Below the pieces are notes generated by a model. That model was not told where the DNA came from. It was given only the letters and a program-made list of their open reading frames with translations, and ran no database searches. Source: Adhaeribacter swui (GTDB lineage Bacteria > Bacteroidota > Bacteroidia > Cytophagales > Hymenobacteraceae). Taken from it: a stretch of 64,000 nt of DNA. Of the stretch, positions 745-55,729 are shown piece by piece (positions within the stretch are counted from its first letter, which is position 1; every line of letters begins with the position of its first letter). The translations under genes and the position numbers were made by a program. The stretch covers positions 1,802,585 through 1,866,584 of the forward strand of contig NZ_CP055156.1 in the NCBI RefSeq assembly GCF_014217805.1, in the 5' to 3' direction.

Positions 745-887
745 AGAAGCAGAAATTTGGTTTAAATTTTTAAAATTTAAATATACAAAATGGTTTTAAG
801 TAAATGAACTCTAGTATTAGGATGTTAAAGCCAGGGCTTTTAATCAATCTATTAATTCAGTAATGGAATACTTTTCAAAGTAAATGA

Positions 888-1090
888 CTATGGCGCGGAA
901 GTTACTTCCGTTACTTTTGATTTAAAAAATTATCGTTCGCATAGCTGACTGAGTAGCTTTATTGCTTAGTGGAACTGTTTTATTGCTCGCTTCTTGTTCT
1001 TTTTGTCTTGACACAAAAAGAACCAAAAAAGTCAAGACGCTAAAAACTCGCTGAACGCTCGAACAGTTTAGCGTCAAACCTTGCACCTGG
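888..1090. repeat. structured ~200-bp intergenic repeat (family B/C), copy 1
   Basis: Begins with palindrome CTATGGCGCGGAAGTTACTTCCG. Contains nested inverted repeats gttctttttgtcttgacacaaaaagaac and gacgctaaa...tttagcgtc. Reverse-complement copy at 55730-55937. Confidence 0.8.
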
Positions 1091-1310
1091 CAGATGCTAT
1101 TTGTTGCATCGCTGGCTAGGATAATTTAAAGTTTTACAATTTAAAAGTCTTTGTCATTCAGAAGGAACCTATTTTGCTACGCAGCAGAACAAGTTCCATT
1201 AGTAACAGCCATTACATGTTAATCTTCGCCTCTTTAAAGGCCGTTAAGTTCCATTTCTATCGCGAGCGTGGACGCTCGCGGCAGAAGTTTTTTTAATTTT
1301 TAGCTAATTC

Positions 1311-1359: not shown

Positions 1360-2466
1360 TCAAACCGTAAGCGCCACCCGTTTGCCGGTTTCGGCGGATT
1401 TGTAGATAGCTTCTACAATCCGGATGTCGCGGAGACCTTCTTCGCCGCCAACGGGCATGGGTTTGCCTTGCATGATGGTGCGCGCGTCATCGTCCATTTG
1501 GTTGGCTTGCTGCCACGGGTTTTTGTATGGGTGGTTGATTTCGCCAAGGGGGCTGCTGCCTTTTACCCCATCGTAGGCCGAGTAAGGTTCCATCTTAATT
1601 TCGCCTTTGGCACATTTAATCGTTAAAAAATTTACGTTTTCGCCGAAGCTCGTTTTAATATCGGCCAGCACGCCGCCCGGAAACTCCAGGGTAGCTACAG
1701 CGGTTTCGGCTAATCCGTTTTTATAAATTTCCGGCCGGGTAGTTGAGGTTTTAGCCATAGCTACAGCAATCGGTTCCATGCCCGTTCCCATGCGGGCTCC
1801 TTGGATGGCATAAACGCCCATGTCGTGCATGACGCCGCCGCCCATTTCTTTCTTCTGCTTCCAGTGGTCGGTGCGGTTATCTTGGTAGCCGGCGGCGCAT
1901 TTCACGCTTTGTACTTTGCCTAAAAGCTGTTTTTGTACAATGTTGCGGTATTCTTTGGTGTTAGGTTCGTGCTGCAGGCGGTAACCAATCGCTAACGATC
2001 TTTTGTTTTTCTTACAAGCGGCAATCATGGCCTGGCATTCCTGGGAGGTGACAGCCATGGGTTTTTCGCACCATACGTGTTTACCGGCATTGGCAGCCCG
2101 TTCCACGTACTCCCGGTGCATAGATGGCGGCAATACTACGTACACCACGTCAATATCGGGGTTATTGGCAATGGTGTCGAAGTTCTGGTAGTTATAAATG
2201 TTTTTGTCCGGAATGTTATACTTTTTCTTCCACGTTTCGGCTTTTTCCGGCGAACCGGTTACAATACCAGCCAGGTAACAATTTTTGGTTTGCTGCAAAG
2301 CAGGCGCCAGCAAATCGGTGCTGTAATAACCCAGACCCACCAGTGCTACGCCTAATCGGTCTTTTTGCGGCCGGGTAGCTGCCAGCAAGGTGTTCGGCGA
2401 AAAAATGGCAGTAGCACTACCCAAAACAATTGTTTTTAAGACGTCTCGGCGAGTTGTAGAAGACAT
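1360..2466 (-). CDS. Gfo/Idh/MocA family oxidoreductase, Tat-signal (periplasmic)
   Basis: N-terminal twin-arginine motif TRRDVLK; Rossmann motif GVALVGLGYY; EKP motif (WCEKPMA) typical of the GFO/IDH/MocA family. Confidence 0.85.
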   Translation of the reverse strand: MSSTTRRDVLKTIVLGSATAIFSPNTLLAATRPQKDRLGVALVGLGYYSTDLLAPALQQTKNCYLAGIVTGSPEKAETWKKKYNIPDKNIYNYQNFDTIANNPDIDVVYVVLPPSMHREYVERAANAGKHVWCEKPMAVTSQECQAMIAACKKNKRSLAIGYRLQHEPNTKEYRNIVQKQLLGKVQSVKCAAGYQDNRTDHWKQKKEMGGGVMHDMGVYAIQGARMGTGMEPIAVAMAKTSTTRPEIYKNGLAETAVATLEFPGGVLADIKTSFGENVNFLTIKCAKGEIKMEPYSAYDGVKGSSPLGEINHPYKNPWQQANQMDDDARTIMQGKPMPVGGEEGLRDIRIVEAIYKSAETGKRVALTV

Positions 2467-2755: not shown

Positions 2756-4309
2756 ATGAAAAAACAACTTCAATTATTTCTTCTCTCCTTGGTGCTGTTA
2801 CCGGGCAGTGTAGCCATGGCGCAAACCAAAGATCCGGTGGTAGATGCTATTGTGAAAGAAGCGAACGAGAACTCGCAACTCGAAAAATTAGGCCACGAGT
2901 TAATGGACGTGATCGGTCCCCGGCTGGTAGGTACCCCGCAAATGAAACAAGCCGGCGACTGGGCCGTGGCTAAATACAAAGATTGGAATATTAGCGCCCG
3001 CAATGAAAACTGGGGCGAGTGGCGCGGTTGGGAACGCGGTATTTCGCACATTGATTTAGTTTACCCACGCACCGAATCGCTGGAAGGTATGCAATTGGCC
3101 TGGAGTCCCGGCATGAAAAAAGCCGTTACGGCGGAGCTGATTATTATTCCGGACGTAGCAGATTCTATGGAATTTAAAAAATGGTTACCCGCCGTAAAAG
3201 GTAAGTTCGTGCTCATCTCCATGAACCAGCCCACCGGCCGACCCGATTATAACTGGCAGGAATTCGCCAGGAAAGAATCTTTCGAGAAAATGAAAGCCGA
3301 CCGCACCGCGCAAACCGAAGCCTGGCGCAACCGCTTAAGTAAAACCGGCCGGACTACGCGCAACTTGCCCATTGCCCTGGAAAAAGCTGGAGCCGCCGGG
3401 GTGGTTACCTGTAACTGGTCGAATGGCTTTGGGGTGAATAAAATCTTTGCTGCTTACACTAAAAAAATCCCGACCATTGATATGTCGCTGGAAGATTATG
3501 GGTTGCTTTACCGCCTCACCGAATCGGGCCATAAACCTAAAATACGGGTGCAAACTGAGTCGAAGGAAAAAGGCGTTGTACCTACTTTTAACACCATTGC
3601 CGAAATTAAAGGCTCCGAGAAACCCAATGAGTACGTGATCTTGTCGGCGCACTTTGATTCCTGGGACGGCGGCACCGGCGCCACCGATAATGGTACCGGC
3701 ACCCTAACCATGATGGAAGCCATGCGCATTTTAAAGAAAGTATACCCGAACCCGAAGCGTACCATTCTGGTGGGCCACTGGGGCAGCGAAGAGCAAGGCT
3801 TAAACGGCTCCCGCGCTTTTGTGGCGGATCATCCGGAAATTGTGCAGAACGTGCAGGCGGTATTTAACCAGGATAACGGTACCGGCCGCGTGGTAAACTT
3901 GGCGGGACAAGGATTTTTAAATTCTTATGAATATTTGGGCCGTTGGCTAACCCAGGTGCCCGAAGAAATCCGTTCTCAGATTCAAACCAGCTTTCCGGGT
4001 TCGCCGGGTACCGGTGGTTCTGATTTTGCTTCGTTTGTGGCGGCCGGCGCACCTGCTTTTTCCTTGAGTTCTTTAAATTGGTCGTATGGCACTTATACCT
4101 GGCATACCAACCGCGATACCTATGATAAGATTGTGTTTGATGATGTGCGGAGCAACGCGATTTTAACGGCTATTCTGGCGTATATGGCCAGCGAAGATCC
4201 GAATAAGACTTCCCGGGATAAGATTGTATTGCCGGTAAATCCGCAAACGGGGCAACCGGGTATCTGGCCGGAGCCGCGGCAGCCTACGCGAAAAGGTGGT
4301 TTAGATTAA
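2756..4309 (+). CDS. M28 family metallopeptidase (aminopeptidase-like), secreted
   Basis: Signal peptide; PA-like insert; zinc-binding region SAHFDSWDGGTGATDNGTG and HWGSEEQGLNGS typical of peptidase M28. Confidence 0.85.
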   Translation: MKKQLQLFLLSLVLLPGSVAMAQTKDPVVDAIVKEANENSQLEKLGHELMDVIGPRLVGTPQMKQAGDWAVAKYKDWNISARNENWGEWRGWERGISHIDLVYPRTESLEGMQLAWSPGMKKAVTAELIIIPDVADSMEFKKWLPAVKGKFVLISMNQPTGRPDYNWQEFARKESFEKMKADRTAQTEAWRNRLSKTGRTTRNLPIALEKAGAAGVVTCNWSNGFGVNKIFAAYTKKIPTIDMSLEDYGLLYRLTESGHKPKIRVQTESKEKGVVPTFNTIAEIKGSEKPNEYVILSAHFDSWDGGTGATDNGTGTLTMMEAMRILKKVYPNPKRTILVGHWGSEEQGLNGSRAFVADHPEIVQNVQAVFNQDNGTGRVVNLAGQGFLNSYEYLGRWLTQVPEEIRSQIQTSFPGSPGTGGSDFASFVAAGAPAFSLSSLNWSYGTYTWHTNRDTYDKIVFDDVRSNAILTAILAYMASEDPNKTSRDKIVLPVNPQTGQPGIWPEPRQPTRKGGLD

Positions 4310-4360
4310 GGTTAATTGTTAGGACTGAACCAAAAAAGCTGTGGTTAGCTGCATTACTTG

Positions 4361-4537
4361 GAACCGGTTCCCGTCTCCATGCACAAGTTCCATCTTATTG
4401 GATACGGCTGAGTTTGCCTCATGGCCGGCGGGCCTCGTTCGGCTCTTTCGGGCTGTTTAGCGAACCTTGGCTCGTTGCACTGCGCCATGCTGCTGCGCAG
4501 CACCGGAACGCTAAAAGGCCCTCAATAGCCAAACTGG
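4361..4537 (+). repeat. ~150-170 bp structured intergenic repeat (family A), copy 1
   Basis: Shares 5' arm gttccatct..gggctgagtttgcctcatggccggcgggcctcgtt and 3' arm accggaacgctaaaaggccctcaatagccaaactgg with copies at 11782-11957 (rc), 40461-40580 (rc, 5'-truncated) and 55353-55503. Confidence 0.85.
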
Positions 4538-4624
4538 TATTAGTTGCGAGTAGCTACTTTTATTGGTAAAATTACCACAAGTTACTAAAGGGCTAATTTT
4601 GTAAGCTCTATTTAGCCCTAAACT

Positions 4625-4728
4625 TTATGGCGCGGAAGTTACTTCCGTGCCTTTCTAAATTCTTAAGATGGACTAGCGGTTTAATTGGAATAAGTATAAT
4701 AGTCACGGAAGTAACTTCCGCGCCATAG
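4625..4728. repeat. pair of inverted 25-bp perfect palindromes (ATGGCGCGGAAGTTACTTCCGTG / rc) flanking 54 bp
   Basis: ttatggcgcggaagttacttccgtg at 4625-4649 and cacggaagtaacttccgcgccatag at 4704-4728. The same palindrome occurs at 888-912 and 55911-55935. Confidence 0.8.
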
Positions 4729-4786
4729 TTTTTAAGTATGCCATGCTTATCAAGGATAATTTGAGGCTTTTAATCAACTTAACATT

Positions 4787-4818
4787 AAAAAAGCGGCCTT
4801 TGAGAAGGCCGCTTTTTT
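4787..4818. terminator. bidirectional rho-independent terminator (fumC / M28 peptidase)
   Basis: aaaaaagcggcctt-tgagaa-ggccgcttttttaaa: GC hairpin flanked by A-run and T-run. Confidence 0.8.
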
Positions 4819-4891
4819 AAATAACTCTATATCTGTGAACTCTCAACCATGGTCTAGTTTTTTCTAAGGACTATGGACTATGGACTATCAA

Positions 4892-6292: not shown

Positions 6293-6476
6293 ATTGTTTT
6301 TCTAAAAATGTAAGTTTTACAAAACGGCTCGAAAGTAAAGAATAAATTTTCGAAAGCAGAGCGAAAAATATTTAAAATATGCAGATTGATATAAACAGCA
6401 TTACCCGATTTTTAAACAAACGATGCTGTTCAAAAATCGGGTAATCTAATTAAACTAAATTTAAAGCTTTCATAAG

Positions 6477-6724
6477 GGTTGGTTGTGAAGACACAACCAA
6501 CGGCGGAACTAATCTAAGACTTCACAAAAGTTGTAAATAATAACACCGATTAATGAGCCTTGCTGCCGATTGTGTGTCCGCAACTAATTTTTTGCCCGTT
6601 GGTTGTGTTTTCACAACCAACCGTAATAACCTTTTGGCTTAACCCAGAAAATTTTAAAACTTTTAATTTCTGGTAAGTTTGAAATAAAGATTCACTGCCG
6701 TTGGTTGTGTCTTCACAACCAACC
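6477..6724. repeat. three spaced ~27-bp palindromes GTTGGTTGTG(W)WGACACAACCAAC
   Basis: Copies at 6477-6506, 6595-6623 and 6698-6724; each is a 10-bp-stem hairpin; spacing ~100-120 bp; lies between the fumC start and the end of the 6762..7334 gene. Confidence 0.8.
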
Positions 6725-6761
6725 TTGGTAACCTTTTAACTAAAGTATTTTTTGCTGTTTT

Positions 6762-9999: not shown

Positions 10000-11376
10000 A
10001 TGGCGAAAATAAAAACCTCTTACTTCTGCCAGAGTTGTGGGGCGCAATCCGCAAAATGGATTGGTCGTTGCCCAGCTTGTGGCGAATGGAATACCTACGT
10101 AGAAGAAGTACTGCAACGCGAAGAAGCAGCCGGACCAGCTTCCTGGAAATCCTCTTCGTCGCTGCAAATAGCAAACAAACCCCGGCCTATTGCCGAAATC
10201 AGCTACTCCGAAGAATTGCGCCTGGATACCCGCGACCAGGAATTAAACCGGGTTTTAGGCGGCGGCATTGTGCCGGGCTCCATGGTTTTAATTGGCGGCG
10301 AACCGGGCATTGGTAAATCTACTTTAATGCTGCAGATTGCCTTAAATTTAAAAAATCAGCGGGTACTCTACATTTCCGGCGAAGAAAGCGAACAGCAAAT
10401 AAAAATGCGGGCCGAACGCCTCGGTGCGCAACACCCCAACTGCTTTATTTTAACCGAAACCGGCACCCAAAATATATTCAAGCAAATTGAGCAACTGCAG
10501 CCCGAAGTATTAATCATCGACTCCATCCAAACTTTGCATTCGGCTTTTATCGAAAGTGGAGCGGGTAGTATTTCGCAGGTGCGGGAATGTACCGCCGAGT
10601 TGTTAAAATACGCTAAAGAAAGCGGTACGCCGGTGTTTTTAATCGGCCATATAACCAAAGAAGGTAACCTGGCCGGCCCTAAAATTCTGGAGCACATGGT
10701 AGATACCGTATTGCAGTTCGAAGGCGACCGCCACATGACTTACCGCATTTTACGTACCACGAAAAATCGTTTCGGTTCTACTTCCGAATTGGGCATTTAC
10801 GAGATGCTGGGTACTGGTTTGCGGCAGGTTAGTAATCCTTCGGAGATATTAATTTCGCAGCGCGAAGAAAACTTTAGCGGCATTACCATTGGCGCCACTC
10901 TAGAAGGCAATCGCCCTTTATTAATTGAAGTGCAAAGTTTGGTTAGCCCGGCTACCTACGGTACGCCGCAGCGTTCCAGTACTGGTTACGATGCCAAACG
11001 GTTAAATATGTTGCTGGCCGTATTGGAAAAACGCAGTGGTTTTAAGTTAGGCTTGCAAGACGTATTTTTAAACATTGCAGGTGGCATTAAAGTAGAAGAT
11101 CCGGCTATTGATTTAGCCGTGTGTGCTTCCATCCTGTCGTCGTTTGAGGATTTAGCTATTCCGCATACTACCTGCTTTGCCGCCGAGGTAGGCTTAAGTG
11201 GCGAGATCCGGGCCGTAAACCGCATCGACAACCGCATCAGCGAAGCCGAAAAGCTGGGTTTTAAAGAAATTTACATTTCTAAGTTTAATTTAAAAGGCAT
11301 CGACCAGAAGAAATTAGGTATAAAAGTAAACGCGGTAAGTAAACTGGAGGAAGTTTTAAGTTCTCTTTTTGGATAA
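10000..11376 (+). CDS. radA: DNA repair protein RadA/Sms
   Basis: N-terminal C4 zinc finger CQSCGAQSAKWIGRCPACGEWNT; Walker A GGEPGIGKST; KNRFG motif; C-terminal Lon-like domain. Confidence 0.9.
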   Translation: MAKIKTSYFCQSCGAQSAKWIGRCPACGEWNTYVEEVLQREEAAGPASWKSSSSLQIANKPRPIAEISYSEELRLDTRDQELNRVLGGGIVPGSMVLIGGEPGIGKSTLMLQIALNLKNQRVLYISGEESEQQIKMRAERLGAQHPNCFILTETGTQNIFKQIEQLQPEVLIIDSIQTLHSAFIESGAGSISQVRECTAELLKYAKESGTPVFLIGHITKEGNLAGPKILEHMVDTVLQFEGDRHMTYRILRTTKNRFGSTSELGIYEMLGTGLRQVSNPSEILISQREENFSGITIGATLEGNRPLLIEVQSLVSPATYGTPQRSSTGYDAKRLNMLLAVLEKRSGFKLGLQDVFLNIAGGIKVEDPAIDLAVCASILSSFEDLAIPHTTCFAAEVGLSGEIRAVNRIDNRISEAEKLGFKEIYISKFNLKGIDQKKLGIKVNAVSKLEEVLSSLFG

Positions 11377-11781
11377 ATAAAAGAAATTCACTTGGTTTTG
11401 GTTAGATAGGAGTATAAAAATCAAAAACTTAGGGTAAAATTACTGATTGTATTACAGGAATTTTTAAATTAGGCCGTACACACAACACTATTTTACCCGG
11501 GATTAATAAGTAGCCGTACACCAGCGGCATACCTGTACAAGAACTTTTATACATAAATAATTAATCCAATCCGACCTAAGCCCTGGTTTCCATCGCGCGA
11601 AGCCAGGGCAATTTCATATTAATGCGAAGCTTGCAACAAGAAAATGCATTTTTTAAAATTTTAGTTGAGCTTAAAGCTAGCGCAGCGTTCTAAGTAATTT
11701 TTGCAAAGCCAATTTTTAATTAGCTTTTGTAAAGCGCTATTGCGCCAAATGGGGAGCAGCAGTAGCTAAGCGCAATAGATA

Positions 11782-11957
11782 CTAGTTTGGCTGTTGAGGA
11801 CCTTTTAGCGTTCCGGTGCCGACGCAGGAGGCATGGCGCAGTGCAACGAGCCAAGGTTCGCTAAACCGTCCGAGAGAGCCAAACGAGGCCCGCCGGCCAT
11901 GAGGCAAACTCAGCCCGTTCAAATACGATGGAACCAGTAAATGGAGACGGGAACCGG
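11782..11957 (-). repeat. family A intergenic repeat, copy 2 (reverse orientation)
   Basis: Reverse complement aligns along its full length with 4361-4537. Confidence 0.85.
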
Positions 11958-12220
11958 CTCCAAGTAAATACGGAAACAAACTAAATTTTTAAAAATTTAC
12001 TTTTTAGCAGCTTGATAAAGCCGATGCAGGTTCCGGCTTTTAACCGGAGTAAAGTCACAGACTTTAACTTATAGATAGGCACAAGTTTGAAAACTTGCCC
12101 CAGAGAATGGGGAACAAGGAAACGGGAACCGGCGCCAAAACAAACAATAAAAAGTCCGTATCAAATATTTCATACCAATATTATATTGTTACTTTGTTTT
12201 ATAGAGTAACGCTTTTGTAA

Positions 12221-13249
12221 ATGGCCGTAACCGGAAAACTAACCGATGCTTTTAATTTGCTTTCTAAACTTACCTGGCAACGGGCGGGTAATATGGGGCA
12301 AGTGGTAAGCAGCTACATCTTATCGAAGCTTACCCAAAAAGCCACGCACTGGGGTAGCCCCATCAGTATTTCGTTTGAGCCTACTACCTCGTGTAATTTG
12401 CGTTGCCCCGAGTGCCCCAGCGGTTTGCGTTCGTTTACCCGACCTACCGGCATGCTGCCTGATGAGTTATTCCGGAATACCATCGACCAACTGCATCAGA
12501 AATTATTGTACTTAATTTTTTACTTTCAGGGCGAACCTTATTTGCATCCCCGCTTCCTGGAAATGGTACAGTATGCTTCTAAAAGAAAAATATACACAGC
12601 CACTTCTACCAATGCGCATTACCTTACCGAAGAAAACGCCCGCAAAACCGTAGAATCGGGTCTGGATCGGTTGATTATTTCCATCGACGGTACCAGCCAA
12701 GAAACTTACCAGGCTTACCGCGTAGGTGGCAACTTAAATAAAGTAATCGAAGGCACCCGCAACCTGATCAAGTGGAAGAAAGAGTTAAAATCCAAAACCC
12801 CTTTCGTGATTTTTCAATTTTTGGTGGTGCGGCCCAACGAACACCAGATAGCCGATGTTAAAAAACTGGCGGCGGAGTTAGGCGTAGACGATGTGTGGTT
12901 TAAAACAGCGCAAATTTACGATTATGCGCAAGGTTCGCCGTTAATACCTACTATAGATTATTACTCGCGGTACCAGAATACCGGCAACGGTACGTATCAG
13001 ATTAAAAATAAATTGCTTAATCATTGCTGGCGCATGTGGCATTCCTGCGTTATAACCTGGGACGGCCTGGTAGTACCCTGTTGTTTTGACAAAGACGCCG
13101 AATACCGCATGGGTGATTTAAAAACCGAAAGTTTCCGGGCTTTGTGGCGCGGCACGCATTATCAGAAATTCCGGGGAGCCGTTTTAAAATCGCGGAGCCA
13201 GGTAGAAATGTGCCGGAATTGCACCGAAGGCACCAAGGTGTGGGGATAA
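12221..13249 (+). CDS. radical SAM protein with C-terminal SPASM-like Cys cluster
   Basis: CxxxCxxC motif CNLRCPEC within SFEPTTSCNLRCPECPSG; C-terminal Cys-rich CW..C..W.G..VPCCFD...CRNC consistent with SPASM/twitch auxiliary cluster. Confidence 0.7.
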   Translation: MAVTGKLTDAFNLLSKLTWQRAGNMGQVVSSYILSKLTQKATHWGSPISISFEPTTSCNLRCPECPSGLRSFTRPTGMLPDELFRNTIDQLHQKLLYLIFYFQGEPYLHPRFLEMVQYASKRKIYTATSTNAHYLTEENARKTVESGLDRLIISIDGTSQETYQAYRVGGNLNKVIEGTRNLIKWKKELKSKTPFVIFQFLVVRPNEHQIADVKKLAAELGVDDVWFKTAQIYDYAQGSPLIPTIDYYSRYQNTGNGTYQIKNKLLNHCWRMWHSCVITWDGLVVPCCFDKDAEYRMGDLKTESFRALWRGTHYQKFRGAVLKSRSQVEMCRNCTEGTKVWG

Positions 13250-25442: not shown

Positions 25443-28400
25443 TTAAAAATCAGCGGCTGCTACTTTATCCTGACTAAATTGGCCGAGTACTTCTTTAATG
25501 CCGCTTAAACCAGCCGCGATACTTTCCATTTGCGCCAGTACCTGCCCCACCTGGTTGTCTGCACCAAAAGTTTTTAATTTTAAGTTACGGCTAAAGGTTT
25601 CTTTAATGGCTTCCCAGCGTTGTAATTCTGCAGCATTAGCAAATCCGGTAAGTTCTTTAAACTTTAATAAGTTAGCTTCCGCGCCGGTGGCTAGGGTTTG
25701 TGCTTCGGCTTCGTAGTGCGCTAAAATCAAGGTTTCCAGTTCCTGGTCGTTCATCACCGGATTTACTTTTTCGGCCAGCTTGTTCATGTTGCGGTAAGAG
25801 CCTTGCAGTTTAAACGCCGGCTCGGTGCGGTACTCTTCGGCCTGTGCAGCCGAATAGATGTACGCGGTATTTACCCTTAGAATGACATCCCGGATTCTGA
25901 GTAACTTTTGAAATACTCTCACTAATTCGTTTATTTCTTCGGCAGCGTAATTGCCTTCCAGTTCTAAGCTTTCCTTTTCGCCGGTTTCGGCTACCCGGAT
26001 TAAGGTATATATATCTTGCTGGCTTTTGCTGGTGAGTTGGGCCAATGTAACGTTAGAGGTAAGGGCATTTTCCAGGTAACTCAATTTAAAAACTGCTTCG
26101 GTATCGCCGATGATGTCGCCTAAGTTGTAAATATCGGCCCGGTTCGCGAGCATGTCGGGTATCCGGAATTTTTCGCCGGTTTCGGTGTACGGGTTACCAG
26201 CCATAACCACGCATACTTTTTTACCCCGAAAATCGTAGGTTTTGGTTTTACCTTTGTACGTGCCTTCAATTTTGCGTTGGGCATCGCATAACGAAATAAA
26301 CTTTTGCAAGAATTCCGGATTACAATGCTGAATATCGTCCAGGTAAATCATGACGTTATCGCCCATCTCGAAAGCTAAGTTCAGCTTGCCTAATTCTTCG
26401 CGGGCTGCGGCATTCGGCGCTTCGCTGGGGTCTAAAGAAGTAACCTGGTGGCCAATGGCGGGGCCGTTAATTTTCATAAAAATCACGCCCAACCGGTTGG
26501 CAATGTACTCCATCAGTGTGGTTTTACCGTAACCCGGCGGCGAGAGCAGCAATAACATTCCCATCAGGTCGGTGCGTTTAGTATCGCCGGCCGTACCCAT
26601 TTGTTTCGCTAAGTTGGCGCCGATTAAAGGCAAATAAACCTGATCAATTAATTTGTTCCGCACAAACGAGGATAACACCCGGGGCTTAAATTCTGATAAG
26701 CGCAATTCTTCGGCAAAGGCCTGGGTTAAGCCTCTTTTTAGCTCGTTGAATTGTGTAAACCGGGGTGCTACCGTAGTGGCGTAGCTGGTTAATTTTTCCT
26801 GAAACGCGTGAAAATCTAGACGGTATTGCTGCTTTTGAACCAATGGGTGCGCGCCCTGCATACTCGTTACAATCTCGGTTAAAGCCGCGTGATGCACGCG
26901 TTGCAAATTAAAATCATGGGTAAACAAAAGTACTGCGGCTTCTGCTACATAATCGGGGTTAAAGCTACTACCAGCCTGCTGTAAAAAGGCTTTCAGCCAA
27001 TGCTGAATTAACTTAAACTGCTGTACCGGGTTGTTAGCAAAAGCTGCTACAGAAGTATCGTATGTACTTATAACTTTTTTATCTGTTAAATATTGCTGAA
27101 AACCCTGGTACAAGGCCGCAGCCTGGTCCGAGATAATAAAATGGTTCGGGCGAATTAATTCGTAAAACAAGTACTCGCCCGCCTTTTCACTGTTAGCGTT
27201 AGCGCACAACCCGGTTTCGTTTACAAACGCCTGGATACCTAGTTGCAATTCCTGAATAACAGCTTCGAACTGCCGGGTTTCGGGGAAAACCTGTAAAATA
27301 GCGCTTATTCCTTGTAACTGGTTGGTTAGTATTTCTTTCTGATCTTCGGCGATAAAAGCTTTCCAGAATAACTGCGTTGCTGCCCGGTCCAGGGGAGCGT
27401 AGCGCAACAGATCGGCGGTTTTTAAAAATCGAACCAGCACCGTTAACAACTGAGTTGCGTCCTGGTCGTGCACCCCTTTAATGTACCCTTCGTTGAAGCG
27501 CGCCGCCATAAATTTTTGCGTGTACTCCAACAGTTCGGCAGCGGTCAGCTTATGCAAATCATTCACCGACAAATAAGCGAAACCTTCGCTTGAAGCAAAG
27601 TCCGAGGCGCTTTGAGCAGCCTGCAAAATTTGAAAAGCCAGGTACTCGGCCCGGTACACCGTATTATTTTCGGATACCAGCGTTTGTTCCCAAATTGGCT
27701 GATAACTCAAAAAATGCGGGTCGGTTATTTTTTCAAAAAAGTTGGTGCCGGTAAGGTGGTAATACATGGCGTTGTCGCGCAGTACTACGCTTAAATCCAG
27801 CGGTTGGGTATTTACCGTAAAAGCATGCGGCCCAAATTGAATGATGTTCGAACCCACCACAAAAAGCTCGTTTTTGTCTTTTAGCTGCCTTACCGTGTCT
27901 TCTTTTAAGGCTTTTAAACGGCTTTGGATCGTATCGGCTTTCACGGTGTCGCCGATGTGCAATAACTCCACCACGGTATTCCGGACTTTTTCCACCATTA
28001 AATCCGCGGCAAAATACCCGTTTATATCGTTTACCGTGGTAAGTTTGGCTACCCGACCCTGCATGGCTTTTAAAATACGCTCAGCCGTTTGTTGCAGGTT
28101 AGTAGCACGTTTGTTTTGAGCTTCCTGTAAGGCGGCTTTTCTGGATTCAAAAGCGCTGTAAATTTCCTCGCGCTTGTGGCTAATCTGGTCGGTAAACTCG
28201 TCGAAATCCGTGAACTTGCCTTCCAGTTCTTCCAACTGCACCATTACTTTGGCCAGGTATTCTTCGCATTTAGCCGGCGTATCGCAAACATCCAGGTAAT
28301 TAATAACGCTTTGGCTGATAAGCTTGATCTGGGAGTTAAATTCGGCTTTGCCTTCCTGGCTTACTAGTTCTAAACGCTTGCGTTTTAAACCGGCTTTGGT

Positions 28401-30392
28401 TTGATTGAAAGTGGCGTAAATAGCCGAAATAGTATCTACAATCCTAGTGGTTTGGGTGGCGTCTTCTACTTTTAAATTACTGACCACATCAAGGAGCATC
28501 TCCAGCTCACCGGCTATGGCCGCAATGCTTTTCTCGGTAGCATCCGCTTCTACTACTTTCTCAATTTTTTGAATATCAGCTTGGATGTTCCGGATGCGTT
28601 GCTCGTAAGGTGTAAGGGCATCGGGTTGCAGCAGGAAAGTAATGCTGGCATTGGCGGTTTGCTGGGTATATTCCTGTATTTGTTGTTCGTAAGTGTCGAT
28701 TAAAGCCAGGTCAGCGTAGCGCAAATCTTTTAACGAGATCATTTCGCCACGCACCGAACGCAGTTCCGCCAGGTACTTCACGAAATCCAGAATAGCCGTG
28801 GGCTTCTGAATTTTTAAATTTTTAATTAAATCCTCAGCTTTTGCAATTACCTTGGTTACCTGCTCGCGGGTGCTTTTTTTAATGCGCAGTACCTTTTCGT
28901 ATTCTTCTACCGCCGCCGTAGCGCTTTGCCGGATTGCGCTGATGGGTTCCGCCAGGTTATAAGTTTCCGTACGATTCAGCCAGTGGTAAGTATCCAGCAA
29001 ATCGGTGCTCAGCTTGATTAAATCGAGGTATAAATTCCCGTACGAATCTTCTTTTTGTAACAAGGTCAACACCTCGGTGCTTTCGGCCATGGCCCGCACA
29101 ATATCTTTGTTGCCTACTTTATACAGGTAAGAATCCAGGGTTACGGGTATGGCGTAATTGCTGCCAATATAAGGCGTTTGCCAGATTTGGATAGCGTGGT
29201 GTTTTTTGGCTTCGGCATCGGCTTTAAAATAACATAACTCGCCATTTTCAAAAATTGCGTAGCCGTGGCAAACAATCGGGTTTTCTATTTTCTGCGTGAT
29301 TACATTGTACGATAGCAGCAAGTACACGCCGTTGGCTTTGTTGTAAAAGACGAACAGATAATCTTCGCCGTTGGGCGAGGCAATCCGTTTTTCAAAAAGC
29401 ATATCCGCCAAGCCATTGTCAAATTCTTTAAACTCGCCGGTTTGCAGATAATAGCCGTACGCGTAAATAATGCCTTGATTTTCCGGAAGCAGCACGCAGC
29501 AGTTTTCGAGGGCATCGATGCGGCGCACTTCGCGCAACTTCGCGTTAAAAACCAGGTAGCGATACTTGATCTCTTTGTAAGGCCGTATTTTTAAAATTAT
29601 AATGTTGCCGATAATGGCGTAGTAGATTTCCGAATCATCCAGCGTTTGGTCTTTGTCCTCCACGGGTTCGGCGTAAATACCCAAGCCAGTTTCCGTGTTA
29701 TCTTCTACTTTTATGGTGAGGTCGCCGTGGGTGGTTTCTACAAATACTTTGTCTTCGATGGAAACGTGCGGGAACTTGCCTTTGCGTTGGGCTTCCCGTA
29801 CGGTGCGCTTCCAGGCAAAATCATGCTGGTTCGGGAATACAAATTCGTGATCGCTACGATTGTCCACGTAAGTCAGGGAGTTTTCCTTGATCAGCCACTT
29901 AAACGTTTTAATATCGTTTACGCCTTTGCCAATCCGGAACACCATGTACAGGTGCGTACCCATTACCGCAAATTTTACGAACTGGGTGTTCTTGTAATAA
30001 CGATACAGTTTTTTAAAATCATCCAGAAATACCGCGTCCGAAAGTAACGTTAAGGTCTGCTGCTGAAAAGTCCGGTTCTGGTAATTGTAAATACTAAATA
30101 CATCCGCCAGTTCTATCTCCGCTTTTAATCCCAGATGCACGTTATAGCCAAAAATAAAAGAATTTCCCACGGGCACCATGTCCCAAGGAATGCAATTATT
30201 ATCGGTAGTTACGCGTTCCGTAGCCAGCAAAGTGGTAGCGATAGCACCAAAAACCTGCTTGCGTTCCTGGTTTAACTGATTTAAGCGATTACGTAAATCT
30301 TGTCCGCTTTTTTGCAGCCGGCCCCTTAGTATGTCGTAAGTACCGCCTTCTAATTGTACATTTTGGGCAGCTGGTGTATTGTTTTCGGCCAT
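25443..30392 (-). CDS. giant (1649 aa) coiled-coil-rich protein with C-terminal classical AAA+ ATPase module; function unknown
   Basis: Walker A LLLSPPGYGKTTLM (GPPGTGKT-like); Walker B VMIYLDDIQH ~60 aa later; sensor-1 region VCVVMAGNPYTE; ~1200 aa N-terminal region rich in heptad-like coiled-coil stretches. Confidence 0.8.
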   Translation of the reverse strand: MAENNTPAAQNVQLEGGTYDILRGRLQKSGQDLRNRLNQLNQERKQVFGAIATTLLATERVTTDNNCIPWDMVPVGNSFIFGYNVHLGLKAEIELADVFSIYNYQNRTFQQQTLTLLSDAVFLDDFKKLYRYYKNTQFVKFAVMGTHLYMVFRIGKGVNDIKTFKWLIKENSLTYVDNRSDHEFVFPNQHDFAWKRTVREAQRKGKFPHVSIEDKVFVETTHGDLTIKVEDNTETGLGIYAEPVEDKDQTLDDSEIYYAIIGNIIILKIRPYKEIKYRYLVFNAKLREVRRIDALENCCVLLPENQGIIYAYGYYLQTGEFKEFDNGLADMLFEKRIASPNGEDYLFVFYNKANGVYLLLSYNVITQKIENPIVCHGYAIFENGELCYFKADAEAKKHHAIQIWQTPYIGSNYAIPVTLDSYLYKVGNKDIVRAMAESTEVLTLLQKEDSYGNLYLDLIKLSTDLLDTYHWLNRTETYNLAEPISAIRQSATAAVEEYEKVLRIKKSTREQVTKVIAKAEDLIKNLKIQKPTAILDFVKYLAELRSVRGEMISLKDLRYADLALIDTYEQQIQEYTQQTANASITFLLQPDALTPYEQRIRNIQADIQKIEKVVEADATEKSIAAIAGELEMLLDVVSNLKVEDATQTTRIVDTISAIYATFNQTKAGLKRKRLELVSQEGKAEFNSQIKLISQSVINYLDVCDTPAKCEEYLAKVMVQLEELEGKFTDFDEFTDQISHKREEIYSAFESRKAALQEAQNKRATNLQQTAERILKAMQGRVAKLTTVNDINGYFAADLMVEKVRNTVVELLHIGDTVKADTIQSRLKALKEDTVRQLKDKNELFVVGSNIIQFGPHAFTVNTQPLDLSVVLRDNAMYYHLTGTNFFEKITDPHFLSYQPIWEQTLVSENNTVYRAEYLAFQILQAAQSASDFASSEGFAYLSVNDLHKLTAAELLEYTQKFMAARFNEGYIKGVHDQDATQLLTVLVRFLKTADLLRYAPLDRAATQLFWKAFIAEDQKEILTNQLQGISAILQVFPETRQFEAVIQELQLGIQAFVNETGLCANANSEKAGEYLFYELIRPNHFIISDQAAALYQGFQQYLTDKKVISTYDTSVAAFANNPVQQFKLIQHWLKAFLQQAGSSFNPDYVAEAAVLLFTHDFNLQRVHHAALTEIVTSMQGAHPLVQKQQYRLDFHAFQEKLTSYATTVAPRFTQFNELKRGLTQAFAEELRLSEFKPRVLSSFVRNKLIDQVYLPLIGANLAKQMGTAGDTKRTDLMGMLLLLSPPGYGKTTLMEYIANRLGVIFMKINGPAIGHQVTSLDPSEAPNAAAREELGKLNLAFEMGDNVMIYLDDIQHCNPEFLQKFISLCDAQRKIEGTYKGKTKTYDFRGKKVCVVMAGNPYTETGEKFRIPDMLANRADIYNLGDIIGDTEAVFKLSYLENALTSNVTLAQLTSKSQQDIYTLIRVAETGEKESLELEGNYAAEEINELVRVFQKLLRIRDVILRVNTAYIYSAAQAEEYRTEPAFKLQGSYRNMNKLAEKVNPVMNDQELETLILAHYEAEAQTLATGAEANLLKFKELTGFANAAELQRWEAIKETFSRNLKLKTFGADNQVGQVLAQMESIAAGLSGIKEVLGQFSQDKVAAADF

Positions 30393-30441
30393 AAGCGGCA
30401 GTAAACTAAAGTAATTTATGATTGAATGTTAAACGGCATTA

Positions 30442-30861
30442 TTACCCCCATTTGGTTCGGAGCAATTCCAGGTTGTTATCCAGCAAAGCCTTAATAGCTA
30501 GCAGGGCATCGTACTTGGTTTGGTTGGTTCGGCCAGTGAAGTATTTTTCGTTCAGTTTTTGAAAAAGTCCGAAGAAGTATTTTTTAATTTTTGGGCGTTT
30601 ATAGAAGATGTAAAACTCATAATCTTCTACATCGCCCACAATCGAAATACTCACGCCATGTTTGTTATAGGTATTTTCTATTTCCAGAGAAGGCGAAAAG
30701 TAAATTTTATCGCCTTTGGTCTCGGCTACGTTTACTTCGTTTAGCAGTTTCAGCCAGGGCACTTCGTTGAAAATATAAAAATAATCCTTGCGCTCCATAA
30801 TGGTTAGTTCCACGGCCTCGGGCTCGCAGGGCTTGCAAATACTATATCTGAAAGAAGACAT
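30442..30861 (-). CDS. hypothetical soluble protein (139 aa) in flotillin/AAA+ operon
   Basis: Same-strand ORF with 49-bp and 52-bp gaps to its neighbours; no TM or known motif. Confidence 0.55.
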   Translation of the reverse strand: MSSFRYSICKPCEPEAVELTIMERKDYFYIFNEVPWLKLLNEVNVAETKGDKIYFSPSLEIENTYNKHGVSISIVGDVEDYEFYIFYKRPKIKKYFFGLFQKLNEKYFTGRTNQTKYDALLAIKALLDNNLELLRTKWG

Positions 30862-30913
30862 AAAATTAAAAAATAGGGATTAGCTGCGCTTGGCAGACGC
30901 AGCTAACCCATTT

Positions 30914-33088
30914 TTAAACTAATTCCATACTTCTAACTAGTTTATCCGAGATGCCCATGGAAGTGGCAGTTTGCGTGAGTTCCTTCAGCAAACCGGTGGT
31001 GTTTTCGTCGGCGCTCTTCTGAATCATTTTCAGTAATAAAGCCGAGACACTCAGGTTGCGCACATCTTCTGACTTCATCCCGAACTGATTTAGGAAATAC
31101 TGCAGATTATCGCGGAACTGTACTTTACCGTTTCCGTTAGTATGGAAAAAAGTATCTTTCACAGTGCCCAAAACCTGGCTGTTATCCACTACCCGGTCCA
31201 CGGATTTACCTTTGGTAATCGAACCAATAATCTGGTCGAAGAACATAGTTTCGCCACCCACGATATCGATTTTGGCGGCTTTTAGAGCTTCGGCAATTAC
31301 TTCGGCCTGCGACGCAGCAATGTCTTTCTGTATGTTAATCTGCGCCAGTTCAATGGATTTATCTTTATCTAGGCGAAGTTTAAATTCTTCGTGGTCTTTG
31401 CCCACACCATCTAATTTGCGCATGGCTTCGGCTTTACTTTCAATGCCTTTGGCATCTACGGTAAATTTCTCGCTGTTTACGCGGGCTTCGGCTAGGCCTT
31501 TTTTCTCTTCGGCAATGGCTAAGTTCTCAATTACGTCGGCATCTGCTAAGCCTTTTTCTTTGGCTACTTTGGCAGCTATTAAGCCTACCTTTTCGTCTGC
31601 TTCGGCCTGCGCCTCGGCTTTTACTTTGGTGGCTTTGGCGGCCGCTACGGCTTGGCGTTCGGTTACTACCGCTTCCGCTTCTCCTTCTTTCTGGCGGGCC
31701 AAGGCTTTGGCTTCCATAACCTGGGCTTCGGATAAACCAAGGGCGGCAGCCTGGGTAGCTTCGGCTTCGGCCATTACTTTTAATGCCTGGGCACGGTTAG
31801 CCGCAGAAGCTTGCTGCGCTTCCGAATCAATGAGTAATTGTTTAGCTCGGAACTCGGCGGCCTGGCGGGCGGCTTCGGCGCCTTTAATTTCTTTCACTAA
31901 GGCGGCTTGCGCTACTTGCTCGGCGTTGGTAATGGCAACGGCTTTAACTCGCTCGGCTTCAGCAAAGGCGCGGGTATCTTTAATTTTTTCTTCTTCTTCG
32001 ACTACCGCTTTTTCTACGGTAACCCGCTCCCGGATAATACCCTGAATGTTTTTACGCTCTTCTTCAATGGCTTTTTCTTTTTCAATCTGAGCCAAGGCTA
32101 CAATGCGTTCTTTTTCGTTGGCTTCGAGTAAACGGGCCTGTTCTACGCGTTCAGTTTCCACGGCATCGGTGCGTTGTTTGCTGCGCTCGGCTACTAAAAT
32201 CTGGCGGTCGCGGTTTTGTTCGGCAATTTTTAATTCTTCGTCGGTGGCAATCTTAGCTTTTTCGGCTTTCAGGCGTTCTTCCTGACGTACTTTTTCGGCT
32301 TCGGCAAATTCCCTGGCTTTAATATTGGCAATCTCGCGACGTTGTTTTTCTTCGTTTTCGGCGAGCTGGCGTTCCAGTTCCAGAATGGTTTCCTGCGCTT
32401 CTACGTTTTGTTTTTTAATCGTTTTTTCTTTTTCGCGCTCAATTAAGTTCGATTGTATTTTCTGGCGGGCGGTTAAGTCAATAATTTTTTTAATTCCTTC
32501 GGCATCCAGAATGTTGTTTTCGTTGAGGTTAGTTAGTGGGGTTTGCTCCAGGTAATCAATAGCGCAGTCGTCGAGTACGTAGCCGTTTAAATCGGTGCCG
32601 ATGGTTTGTAAAATCTGGCGTTTAAAGTCGTCGCGGCTTTGGTATAAATCCACAAAATCGAAATGCTTGCCTACGGTTTTTAAAGCTTCGGAGAACTTGG
32701 CATCGAACAAACCTTCCAGGGCGGTATGGTCCGAAGCGCGTTTACAACCAATGGCTTGCGCTACTTGCACCACGTCTTCGGGCGTTTTATTTACCCGTAA
32801 AAAGAAGTTTACTTTAATGTCGGCCCGGAGATTGTCTTTACAAATCAAGCCTTCGGGCCCGGTGCGGGAAATAACGATGGTTTTTAAGGTGATATCCATT
32901 ACCTCTAATTTGTGGATAATGGGTACCACAAAAATGCCGGAGAAGGAAACTTTAGTATCGCCTAAACCCGTCCGGACCATGGCTTCGCCTTGAATGGCTT
33001 TTTGGTACATGCGGATAACAATGGCGATAAAACCAAAAAGTACAACCGCCAGAATAGCAAGAATAGACCAGGATAATTGTGCAATCAT
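30914..33088 (-). CDS. flotillin family / SPFH (band 7) domain protein, YqiK-like, with long coiled-coil tail
   Basis: N-terminal TM; SPFH core (GEAMVRTGLGDTKVSF...VISRTGPEGLICKDNLRADIKVNFFLRV); ~400 aa Ala/Glu/Lys-rich coiled-coil. Confidence 0.85.
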   Translation of the reverse strand: MIAQLSWSILAILAVVLFGFIAIVIRMYQKAIQGEAMVRTGLGDTKVSFSGIFVVPIIHKLEVMDITLKTIVISRTGPEGLICKDNLRADIKVNFFLRVNKTPEDVVQVAQAIGCKRASDHTALEGLFDAKFSEALKTVGKHFDFVDLYQSRDDFKRQILQTIGTDLNGYVLDDCAIDYLEQTPLTNLNENNILDAEGIKKIIDLTARQKIQSNLIEREKEKTIKKQNVEAQETILELERQLAENEEKQRREIANIKAREFAEAEKVRQEERLKAEKAKIATDEELKIAEQNRDRQILVAERSKQRTDAVETERVEQARLLEANEKERIVALAQIEKEKAIEEERKNIQGIIRERVTVEKAVVEEEEKIKDTRAFAEAERVKAVAITNAEQVAQAALVKEIKGAEAARQAAEFRAKQLLIDSEAQQASAANRAQALKVMAEAEATQAAALGLSEAQVMEAKALARQKEGEAEAVVTERQAVAAAKATKVKAEAQAEADEKVGLIAAKVAKEKGLADADVIENLAIAEEKKGLAEARVNSEKFTVDAKGIESKAEAMRKLDGVGKDHEEFKLRLDKDKSIELAQINIQKDIAASQAEVIAEALKAAKIDIVGGETMFFDQIIGSITKGKSVDRVVDNSQVLGTVKDTFFHTNGNGKVQFRDNLQYFLNQFGMKSEDVRNLSVSALLLKMIQKSADENTTGLLKELTQTATSMGISDKLVRSMELV

Positions 33089-33160
33089 GTTTTAGAAAGT
33101 AATTGTAGAAATGCTTTTTAAATTTTGAGAATTGAGTAAGTCTGTTTTTTAAAAATTTTA

Positions 33161-40286: not shown

Positions 40287-40320
40287 AATTTGAATAATCA
40301 AGATAACTAATTCTAATAAA

Positions 40321-40360
40321 ATAAGCCGGTTGCCCTTAGGAGTAACCGGCTTATTTTTTA
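40321..40360 (+). terminator. rho-independent terminator after T9SS repeat-protein gene
   Basis: ataagccggtt-gcccttaggagt-aaccggcttattttttaaattttt. Confidence 0.8.
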
Positions 40361-40460
40361 AATTTTTGTTAGTAAAGTTACTCCCGATGAAACACCCTAG
40401 TAGCGTAAATATGTCACATTCATGCTACTAAGTAGAGCAAGTAGCTACTGGCAACTGACA

Positions 40461-40580
40461 CCAGTTTGGCTATTGAGGGCCTTCTAAGGTTCCGGTGCGC
40501 AGCATTCCGCAGCGGAGCGAGGAAAGGAAGCTTAGACCAGCCCGAAAGAGCCAAACGAGGCCCGCCGGCCACGAGGCAAA
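40461..40580 (-). repeat. family A intergenic repeat, copy 3 (reverse, 5'-truncated)
   Basis: rc matches the 3' two-thirds of 55353-55503, including tctaagcttcctttcctcgctccgctgcggaat. Confidence 0.8.
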
Positions 40581-40679
40581 ACTTGAAACTAACAAGTTAG
40601 ATAGCACCGCAGCATGAAAGCTTGAAAAGCTTTCACGACAACCGCTAAAACTTTTTAAGCTGCATTTTTTAATTTCAAA

Positions 40680-54155: not shown

Positions 54156-55268
54156 TTAAGCCAGCGTAAAATCCGGCAAAGGAATTATTTCGCCACCTTT
54201 CATGGCGGATTCGTGGGCCAGAATACCCACGCAGGTAATGTTAGCGGATTGCTGCGCATTGGGGTAAGGCTCGCGGTTTTCGACTAAGGCGGTTAAGAAC
54301 TCGTGTACCAGGTGCGGGTGCGAGCCACCGTGGCCGGAACCTTGAATAAAAGACAAATGCTGGTTGTCGCCGGAGTCGTACACACCTTGCTGGGTGAACG
54401 ACTGAATTTCTGCTGGCAGTAAATGTGCGTAATCCGGGGTTTTTACTCTTTCGGGGGTTTCGCCAGTATGGATTACGTTGTCTTCGTGTTCAATTAAGGT
54501 CCATTCAAACGTTTTCTTCGAACCGTACACGTCAAAGCTTTCGCGGTATTGGCGAGCCGTATTAAACAAAGAACGGGTTACTTCAGCGCTTAAATCGGAA
54601 TCTTTTAACTTGATGTGGCAGGACTCGATGGCAAACGGAGAACCGTATTTCGAAATTAAGTTTTCGTCGATGCGGCCGGAACCAAAGCACGATACGTATT
54701 CGGCCTGGGCTTTCGGCAAAGCCAATACCGGACCCACGCAATGGGTAGCGTAGTGCATGGGTGGCAAGCCTTCCCAGTACCCCGGCCAACCGGCCATTTC
54801 CTGTTGGTGCGAAGCCCGGATGAATTGCAGTTTACCTAATTCACCTTTTTCGTACATTTCTTTCACGAACAAAAATTCGCGGCTGTAGATCACCGTTTCC
54901 ATCATCATGTAGGTTTTGCCGGTTTCTTTTACGGCTTCTACAATCTGGCGGCATTCTTCTACGGTAGTGGCCATGGGTACGGTACAAGCTACGTGCTTGC
55001 CGGCCCGTAAAGCTGCCAGCGATTGCTCTGCGTGGCTTTGAATAGGGGTGTTAATATGTATAGCATCTACTTCCGTGTCTTTTAACAACTCGGCGTAATC
55101 GGTGTAGCGTTTTTCTATGCCAAAGGCGTCGCCTATTTCGTTCAGCTTTTCTTCGTTCCGCTGGCAAATGGCGTACATAATGGCGTTCGGATGCTTCTGG
55201 TAAATCGGAATAAATTCGGCACCGAAGCCCAATCCGACTATGGCTACTTTGATTTTTTGTTGGGTCAT
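54156..55268 (-). CDS. Gfo/Idh/MocA family oxidoreductase
   Basis: Start trimmed to MTQQKIKVAIVGLGFGAEF (Rossmann). The track ORF's N-terminal extension runs into repeat family A. Confidence 0.8.
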   Translation of the reverse strand: MTQQKIKVAIVGLGFGAEFIPIYQKHPNAIMYAICQRNEEKLNEIGDAFGIEKRYTDYAELLKDTEVDAIHINTPIQSHAEQSLAALRAGKHVACTVPMATTVEECRQIVEAVKETGKTYMMMETVIYSREFLFVKEMYEKGELGKLQFIRASHQQEMAGWPGYWEGLPPMHYATHCVGPVLALPKAQAEYVSCFGSGRIDENLISKYGSPFAIESCHIKLKDSDLSAEVTRSLFNTARQYRESFDVYGSKKTFEWTLIEHEDNVIHTGETPERVKTPDYAHLLPAEIQSFTQQGVYDSGDNQHLSFIQGSGHGGSHPHLVHEFLTALVENREPYPNAQQSANITCVGILAHESAMKGGEIIPLPDFTLA

Positions 55269-55352
55269 AGTTTTTATAATTTTTGAAATTAGTACGTTTT
55301 TGATTAAGTTCTTTTGGCTGTGCCTGGAGTCTGTTCCAGCCTCCAGGCACAG

Positions 55353-55503
55353 GTTCCATCTTGATTGAACGGGCTGAGTTTGCCTCATGGCCGGCGGGCC
55401 TCGTTTGACTCTTTCGGGCTGTCTAAGCTTCCTTTCCTCGCTCCGCTGCGGAATTCTGCTACGCAGAACCAGAACCTTAGAAGGTCCTCAATAGCCGAAC
55501 TGG
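55353..55503 (+). repeat. family A intergenic repeat, copy 4
   Basis: 5' arm identical to copy 1; middle identical to copy 3. Confidence 0.85.
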
Positions 55504-55729
55504 CGTCTTTGCTTTTAGCTCCGGCTTTTCTGATCAAAAAGAAAGAACGAACCTTCCTATATTGCTGCGAATTAAGATATTGCTCTTAAAACCTTTTAAT
55601 TTATTCCGTCATTCAGGAGAAATCTATTTGGCTTCGTAGTAAAATAGGTTCCTCCTGAATGACATCGGAAATAGTATTTTTAAATTTTTTAAATTTTGCC
55701 AATTAACGATGCAACAAGTAGCATTAGTC

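Follow-up and report, generated by a model that had tools for sequence, protein, structure and literature searches.

Between the genes of Adhaeribacter swui, the 64,000 nucleotides analysed here (the window; positions 1,802,585 to 1,866,584 of contig NZ_CP055156.1) hold a repeat, Family A, that a sequence-only reading had described as either a MITE-like element or a family of small structured RNAs. We ask which of these it is, how far each copy extends, and what keeps its structure.

Four related copies do lie at the places first named, as sequence reading, a repeat finder and a four-way alignment agree. A covariance-model search of the 64-kb window returned exactly four full-length copies (model positions 1-209, 201-215 bits) and no Family A match besides them. 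The length first given, about 150-170 bp, is too short: in the four-way alignment homology runs past the original coordinates at both sides, and the covariance model puts the element at about 205-211 nt. The copies are as follows.

4353..4561, plus strand: copy 1, type 1 middle segment (cmsearch 214.6 bits, model positions 1-209)
11758..11968, minus strand: copy 2, type 1 middle segment (cmsearch 210.8 bits)
40437..40641, minus strand: copy 3, type 2 middle segment, full length (cmsearch 201.4 bits)
55319..55526, plus strand: copy 4, type 2 middle segment (cmsearch 208.1 bits)

All four are solo, two on each strand. The division into two kinds of middle segment, one common to copies 1 and 2 (type 1) and another to copies 3 and 4 (type 2), was seen correctly from the start. 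Copy 3 had been taken for a 5′-truncated copy and is in fact complete (model positions 1-209, 201.4 bits); its 5′ part has diverged in sequence, and the 5′ hairpin is kept by compensatory changes (TGAAAGC...GCTTTCA vs TGGAGCC...GTCTCCA). An 18-mer of the core, TGGCCGGCGGGCCTCGTT, occurs four times in the window where 0.05 occurrences would be expected by chance. Copies of one genome are only 75-90% identical.

The copies are strictly intergenic, as had been claimed. The M28 peptidase gene at 2756-4309 (Pfam) is co-oriented with copy 1 and has its stop codon 44 nt before the start of that copy, and copy 3 starts 39 nt past the stop of a co-oriented aspartate kinase gene (40680-42107). Copy 2 lies between radA (10000-11376, plus strand) and a radical SAM/SPASM gene (12221-13249, plus strand), on the strand opposite to both. 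Copy 4 is overlapped by an ORF at 54156..55388, whose real start is an internal Met at about 55268 (N-terminal translation MTQQKIKVAIVGLG), so this copy too is intergenic; it lies about 51 nt upstream of that start and is divergent from the gene, which encodes a Gfo/Idh/MocA oxidoreductase (Pfam). Protein coding by the element itself is ruled out by inter-copy indels of 1, 2, 7, 15 and 22 nt, which are not multiples of three.

Some other genes of the window deserve mention in their own right. A sigma-54-dependent response regulator is split into two adjacent minus-strand ORFs (42541-43131 and 43144-43884), and the break falls at profile positions 103/109 of the Sigma54_activat domain. This points to a pseudogene, by frameshift or nonsense mutation, or to an error of sequencing. 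Two regions contain large genes of a possible defence or repair type: 25443-33781, with a 1649-aa DUF3686 ATPase followed by three ORFs without a Pfam match, and 43911-48653, with a 1580-aa protein combining DUF4011, an AAA_11/12 helicase and an MTES_1575 nuclease.

The suggestion that Family A is structured is borne out by strong covariation across the copies. The parts of the element, with coordinates in copy 1, are these.

4359..4379, plus strand: P1 hairpin, TGGAACC GGTTCCC GTCTCCA; 7 of the 8 P1 pairs change on both sides
4413..4439, plus strand: 27-nt core, TTTGCCTCATGGCCGGCGGGCCTCGTT, nearly invariant in full-length copies
4437..4534, plus strand: arm of about 100 nt, with closing stem GTTCGGCT/AGCCAAAC, an internal loop rich in pyrimidines, two more stems, and a junction from which hairpins P-D and P-E branch
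4535..4561, plus strand: 27-nt 3′ tail, TGGTATTAGTTGCGAGTAGCTACTTTT, with a conserved TAGCT motif (alignments and tail profile search)

P1 and the core are joined by a variable linker of about 33 nt. The two middle sub-variants turn out to be compensatory versions of the same helices in RNAalifold of the four window copies: UUUAGC/GCUAAA against UCUAAG/CUUAGA, and UGGC/GCCA against UUCC/GGAA. A model-based alignment of 25 sequences has double-sided changes in 27 of the 43 predicted pairs, and 95.3% of its cells pair, against 82.5% in column shuffles (the observed value was reached by none of 500 shuffles). Sliding the partners by 1-3 columns leaves only 33-51% of cells pairing. A MAFFT alignment of 20 full-length copies, which was not fitted to the model, still gives double-sided changes at 21 of the 43 pairs. 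Arm helices 3-7 change on both sides in 20 of 28 pairs, and the P1 stem is wholly different in copy 3, L017 and L027 (L numbers denote the loci and contigs compared). In L017 the closing stem GUUUGGCU/AGCCAAAC is swapped for CGGGGCAG/CUGCCCCG, and both L019 copies have an additional hairpin inserted in the P-D loop. The arms of L020 and L026 (minus) differ at five positions, all of them unpaired.

The supported helices in copy 1 include 4359-4379 and the pairing of 4437-4444 with 4527-4534; the complementary stretches originally quoted are not among the helices that covariation supports. The core holds a GGCC-GGCG-GGCC mini-hairpin between two GCCTC boxes and among full-length copies changes only in L023 (plus), L026 (plus) and L027 (plus). 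Since it hardly varies it shows no covariation, and its pairing (helix 2) stays a prediction only. An all-against-all scan of column pairs for extra helices or pseudoknots gave wobble-driven noise only.

Judged by comparison of the copies, the fold has three parts: a hairpin at one end, a GC-rich core of 27 nt that hardly varies, and a three-way-junction arm of about 100 nt. Its base pairing is evidently kept up by selection. This makes a single-stranded form, whether a transcript or a single-stranded DNA intermediate, the one that matters.

The strand that folds is harder to name. Mismatches in the supported helices are no more often of the G-U type (10) than of the A-C type (13) or others. 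The structure conservation index is slightly better on the complement (0.66) than on the strand listed above (0.59). For P1 and for P-E, the loop reads U..C on the listed strand in all but a few copies (about 18-19 of 20-21). Read from the complement, these become G..A loops: triloops GAA, GCA, GUA and GGA with a closing C-G pair, and also GUGA and GAAAA. GNA and GNRA loops are stabilising in RNA and DNA alike. Loop composition, which mildly favours the complementary strand as the folding strand, is the only asymmetric result among these tests.

Copies 1 and 3 sit in the 3′ untranslated region of a co-oriented gene. Because they begin 39-44 nt past the stop codon with no terminator in between, and because a terminator scan places bidirectional terminator-like hairpins beyond them (4788-4821 and 40318-40357), the listed strand is very probably transcribed at these two copies. 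For copies 2 and 4 that strand is opposite to both flanking genes. The -7 box consensus of Bacteroidota is TAnnTTTG; at neither side of any copy was there a 6-of-6 match, and scores equalled background, for this general consensus, which may differ in this family. No intrinsic terminator was found by the terminator scan at the element ends.

We found 25 Family A matches in all: the four of the window, two in A. arboris and 19 in metagenomes. A metagenome scan with the core yielded 12 Adhaeribacter-like contigs, on which profile and covariance-model searches were then run; the 19 matches include a diverged full-length copy (L017), one cut by a contig end and one weak antisense match. Decayed copies occur, one 3′-truncated (L028) and one without the whole arm (L027, minus). 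The MurA protein of the L017 contig is 91-92% identical to its A. arboris and A. swui counterparts, which places this copy, the most divergent of Family A, in Adhaeribacter as well. The two A. arboris copies, a and b, lie either side of a DinB gene in the syntenic fumC locus; the window fumarase is 100% identical to that of A. swui and has sister-species counterparts at 97% identity. By Pfam the window genes are of an ordinary chromosomal kind. Density is four copies per 64 kb in the window and two per about 43 kb in A. arboris (two 21-kb loci, the further one without a copy). Family A is absent from the 21-kb loci of A. radiodurans and A. pallidiroseus (syntenic fumC loci), A. aquaticus and A. 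soli, and there was no match in viral contigs, PLSDB plasmids or GenBank phages. A scan of a genome collection with a 21-mer of the core gave chance matches only (high-GC Actinomycetota and others); it is uninformative on distribution because it missed A. arboris despite an exact pattern match in copy b. Family A has so far been seen only in Adhaeribacter.

The genes beside Family A are housekeeping genes with no relation to one another; they include those for a peptidase, fumarase, radA, radical SAM, aspartate kinase, oxidoreductases, murA, 5-oxoprolinase subunits and a glycoside hydrolase. A riboswitch or cis-leader would stand regularly before genes of related function, a pattern that the copies do not show. 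In 14 of 20 cases the gene downstream of a copy is convergent with it. Divergent promoter regions hold only 1-2 of about 21 copies, with an enrichment near gene 3′ ends, and about eight copies are opposite to both flanking genes.

Presence varies between species. The element is absent from the orthologous intergenic region of copy 2 in three sister species, the sites orthologous to A. arboris copy a and to the L017 copy are empty in sister genomes, and none of four sister-genome comparisons showed syntenic conservation. No insertion boundary was recovered at the radA-rSAM, DUF6265-DinB and murA loci, where intergenic DNA is too diverged or a neighbour differs. Where window copy 1 lies, gene content differs in the sister genomes. 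The A. swui M28 peptidase gene and fumC are adjacent and convergent, with only repeats between them (4310-4891); the corresponding segments of A. arboris (L014, 11402-14854) and A. pallidiroseus (L016, 11402-14236) hold a LytTR/histidine-kinase pair and one or two small genes, among which DUF416 is present in A. arboris only. By this difference in gene content the repeat cluster marks a synteny breakpoint.

The same sequence subtypes recur in different species at non-orthologous sites. Candidate orthologous pairs fell away on inspection: copy 3 closely resembles the L024 copy, yet the genes upstream of the two are unrelated, and L018/L023 and L020/L026 have the element and 28-75 nt of flank in common and nothing beyond. 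A flank common to similar copies implies that the copied unit is larger than the conserved core and varies by subfamily; it comprises a core of about 210 nt plus, in some lineages, 30-75 nt of subfamily-specific flank at each side. Six tail-to-tail inverted pairs were found, 116-860 nt apart with unrelated spacers (L014, L018, L019, L021, L023 and L027), and paired copies have private variants in common, such as the L019 insertion and a CCAG/CUGG variant in L021.

The window carries other repeats as well.

870-1190, minus strand, and 55631-55935, plus strand: a second repeat family of about 300 nt, also in L028 (about 1620-1900, minus strand)
876-918, 4619-4652, 4701-4734 and 55904-55935: a REP-like imperfect palindrome, TATGGCGCGGAAGTTACTTCCG(T/C)G
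6472-6503, 6596-6642 and 6698-6744: a hairpin repeat, CCGTTGGTTGTG..CACAACCAACGG, in three copies upstream of fumC

The two window copies of the 300-nt repeat contain a stretch of 86 nt that is 100% identical (994-1079 vs 55740-55825) and hairpins GACGCTAAA...TTTAGCGTC and GTTCTTTTTGT...CAAAAAGAAC; the repeat comes after Family A copy 4, and also after the truncated copy in L028. The imperfect palindrome adjoins Family A copy 1 and both window copies of the 300-nt repeat, and at 4619-4734 forms an inverted doublet 48 nt apart that resembles a REPIN. A palindrome of the window that is separate from Family A, GCGCGGAAGTTACTTCCG, is genuinely REP-like. With at least three further repeat families in the window besides Family A, Adhaeribacter genomes look repeat-rich. 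A short tandem repeat of GGTTGGAA units lies at about 1290-1350, upstream of a Gfo/Idh/MocA gene (1360-2466). About 200 nt downstream of radA, a block at about 11540-11615 with the hairpin GCCCTGGTTTCC...GAAGCCAGGGC is nearly identical in four Adhaeribacter species, whereas the intergenic DNA around it cannot be aligned; the block may represent a small RNA or a terminator that has been conserved.

The tests for a known family or a mobile element were mostly negative. Rfam 15 gave no window matches at gathering thresholds, in keeping with the first impression that this is not a known RNA family. Permissive E-value searches of six loci with other copies gave nothing at the element, and the best permissive match within copy 1 was to Chloroflexi-1 (18.4 bits vs a gathering score of 80, E = 0.33). 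These permissive searches also touched a long near-perfect hairpin in L024 (about 2066-2158), some 80-170 nt past the Family A tail, with spurious microRNA-precursor matches only.

Of the term MITE-like, the dispersed, non-coding and variably present part stands; terminal inverted repeats and target-site duplications were not detected, and the 75-90% identity within a genome also speaks against it. The reverse complement of the 5′ end (TTGGAGCC...) does not match the 3′ end (...TAGCTAC). Target-site duplications, proposed as the mark of a simple MITE, did not emerge: the match between the 5′ flank and the 3′ end of one copy is no better than the match to the ends of other copies or that of shuffled flanks (13.05 vs 12.6 vs 12.1). 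A profile of the tail, searched against 5′ flanks, matched in one flank only. A duplication or tail-like direct repeat at the 5′ flank is suggestive by eye and not significant. TTCT or TTAC stands directly 5′ of P1 in nearly all copies and could equally belong to the element. A search for subterminal hairpins at both ends found only P1 at the 5′ end, and the 3′ tail has no comparable hairpin. No transposase or nuclease, and no TnpA, TnpB or IscB, is found among 38 window proteins and 10 neighbours of metagenome copies (Pfam). By size, about 210 nt with a three-way junction, the element is not a REP unit of 20-40 nt of palindrome.

The reading that we prefer, at a probability of about one half, is that Family A is a non-coding, non-autonomous dispersed structured repeat, akin to REP/BIME, ERIC and bcr1-type elements. 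It would be copied, presumably by transposition, to many intergenic sites by machinery encoded elsewhere, as it carries no gene of its own, and would behave like REP/BIME, ERIC, Correia and bcr1-type repeats. Copies would settle mostly near gene 3′ ends, be co-transcribed into neighbouring untranslated regions in either orientation, and fold into a stable structure whose near-invariant core is a putative binding site for a mobilising or host protein. The dispersal to unrelated sites, the presence or absence between species, the subtypes that cross species, the decayed copies and the inverted pairs all argue for this reading, as do the lack of a detected promoter or terminator and the strict Watson-Crick maintenance without wobble preference. 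We also count in its favour that the element is orientation-independent, given the parity of G-U and A-C mismatches and copies 1 and 3 being co-oriented with genes where copies 2 and 4 are opposite to them. Against it, the identity among copies within a genome would be old for an active element, and no terminal inverted repeats, target duplication or clean pair of filled and empty sites was found. With its several branches and conserved loops, the predicted fold is also more elaborate than the usual hairpins of REP or MITE elements, and resembles a functional RNA more closely.

That last point leads to a serious rival, which we nevertheless consider unlikely: that the copies are paralogous, independently transcribed small structured RNA genes acting in trans, for instance as regulators or by sponging up a protein. 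They would act through the CCUC boxes that recur in the element, which read GAGG or GGA on the opposite strand. Such genes would display a complex fold backed by covariation, a hairpin that tolerates insertion (the additional L019 stem) and conserved unpaired motifs, as Family A does, and copies avoid sites directly upstream of co-oriented genes and have mostly convergent downstream neighbours (the 14 of 20 above). A TATTATTGGGT block that resembles the -7 box TAnnTTTG lies 13-20 nt before P1 in L017, L020 and L026 (minus), and many copies have at the 3′ end a small AGC-UNCN-GCU hairpin with a U-rich stretch after it; however, no full TAnnTTTG match stands at either side, scores being at background, and there is no convincing intrinsic terminator. 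Nor are G-U pairs in excess on either strand. The absence of syntenic conservation across the four sister-genome comparisons, the truncated and deleted copies, and the high density fit poorly with RNA genes, and the short distance of copies 1 and 3 from the preceding stop codon leaves little room for a promoter. Of the original proposal of a family of small RNAs, then, the structure is upheld; the promoter motif, convincing terminator and syntenic conservation were not found.

A role in cis is less supported and in our judgement improbable. Action on neighbouring transcripts, by stabilising their 3′ ends or by insulating convergent or tandem genes from each other, would keep the element in place whatever its origin; such roles have been proposed for REP sequences. 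The enrichment near gene 3′ ends, with so few copies in divergent promoter regions (1-2 of about 21), and the position of copies 1 and 3, past a stop codon and ahead of the next bidirectional terminator-like hairpin (4788-4821, 40318-40357), would suit it. The eight or so copies opposite to both flanking genes would not, no canonical terminator lies within the element, and simple exonuclease blocking needs no invariant 27-nt core.

Quite improbable, in our view, is that Family A is the RNA or single-stranded-DNA part of an undescribed Bacteroidota mobile or RNA-guided system. It might stand alone as a scaffold or guide RNA, or a nuclease or recombinase whose gene lies elsewhere in the genome might use it in trans as a structured recognition module; the 27-nt core would be a putative protein-binding platform, with flanking sequence giving specificity. 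The guide-RNA scaffolds of IS200/IS605 elements (TnpB/IscB omega RNA) are like it in being structured modules of about 150-250 nt in multiple copies, sometimes without the nuclease gene, and in ending at the element boundary.

Also less supported, and very improbable, is descent as a non-autonomous remnant of an insertion sequence that bears a guide RNA or transposes as a single strand, either a palindrome-associated IS200/IS605-type element with a TnpB/IscB guide-RNA scaffold or a rolling-circle-type end: such a remnant would have neither terminal inverted repeats nor a target duplication, a subterminal hairpin 1-3 nt past a conserved flank (TTCT/TTAC 5′ of P1), a scaffold-sized structured body that stops where conservation stops, and, on the complementary strand, GNA triloops closed by C-G (classically stable DNA mini-hairpins), all of which Family A has, but its hairpin is at one end only, the two plus and two minus copies in the window and the common inverted pairs are unlike the strand bias of single-strand transposons, no TnpA, TnpB or IscB gene, nor other nuclease or transposase, lies in the window or next to metagenome copies (the 38 and 10 proteins above), and nothing matched the Rfam HEARO or IS605-orfB models, which we take to have been part of the library searched.

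Returning to the dispersed-repeat reading, the closest known systems each differ from Family A. REP/BIME and REPIN elements are mobilised by REP-associated tyrosine transposases, and their units are simple palindromes of 20-40 nt. Like Family A, REP/BIME elements are intergenic, lie preferentially near gene 3′ ends, pair without a G-U preference and have no terminal repeats or target duplications; they occur singly and as inverted doublets, to which the solo and tail-to-tail paired copies of Family A may correspond. Family A is unlike them in being about 210 nt long, asymmetric and multi-branched, with paired copies 116-860 nt apart. Elements of the bcr1, ERIC and Correia (NEMIS) types are 100-200 nt long and carry terminal inverted repeats, target duplications or both, and their fold is in essence a single long hairpin; for bcr1, compensatory changes have been reported. 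They match the reading given here in being non-coding, dispersed, co-transcribed with neighbours and predicted to fold stably, whereas Family A shows neither terminal repeats nor target duplications, is not one long hairpin and has a near-invariant core that is unpaired or GC-rich.

Lineage-specific multicopy structured RNA motifs whose function is not known (Chloroflexi-1, Solibacter-1 and Rhodopirellula-1) were reportedly described by Weinberg et al. 2010. These Rfam motifs are like Family A in their restriction to one genus, many intergenic copies per genome, a covariation-supported fold and no associated gene; they differ in that neither sequence nor structure matches, and in that Family A has decayed copies and inverted pairs. 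Family A is thus new and not in Rfam, and is of a kind, the lineage-specific multicopy structured intergenic repeat, that is already well known.

A limited literature search on repeats and RNA motifs in Adhaeribacter and Hymenobacteraceae found nothing relevant, and to our knowledge interspersed repeats in Hymenobacteraceae are little described. With this, the unusually clear covariation for a repeat found by eye and the absence of an Rfam match make Family A a clean candidate for a non-coding family not described before, from a soil genus that has been little studied. Should a partner protein come to light, Family A could define a new mobilisation or RNA-protein system; otherwise it is an ordinary lineage-specific repeat. 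Even then it would be of use in annotation, given the spurious ORFs that it gives rise to, and for marking where genomes have been rearranged.
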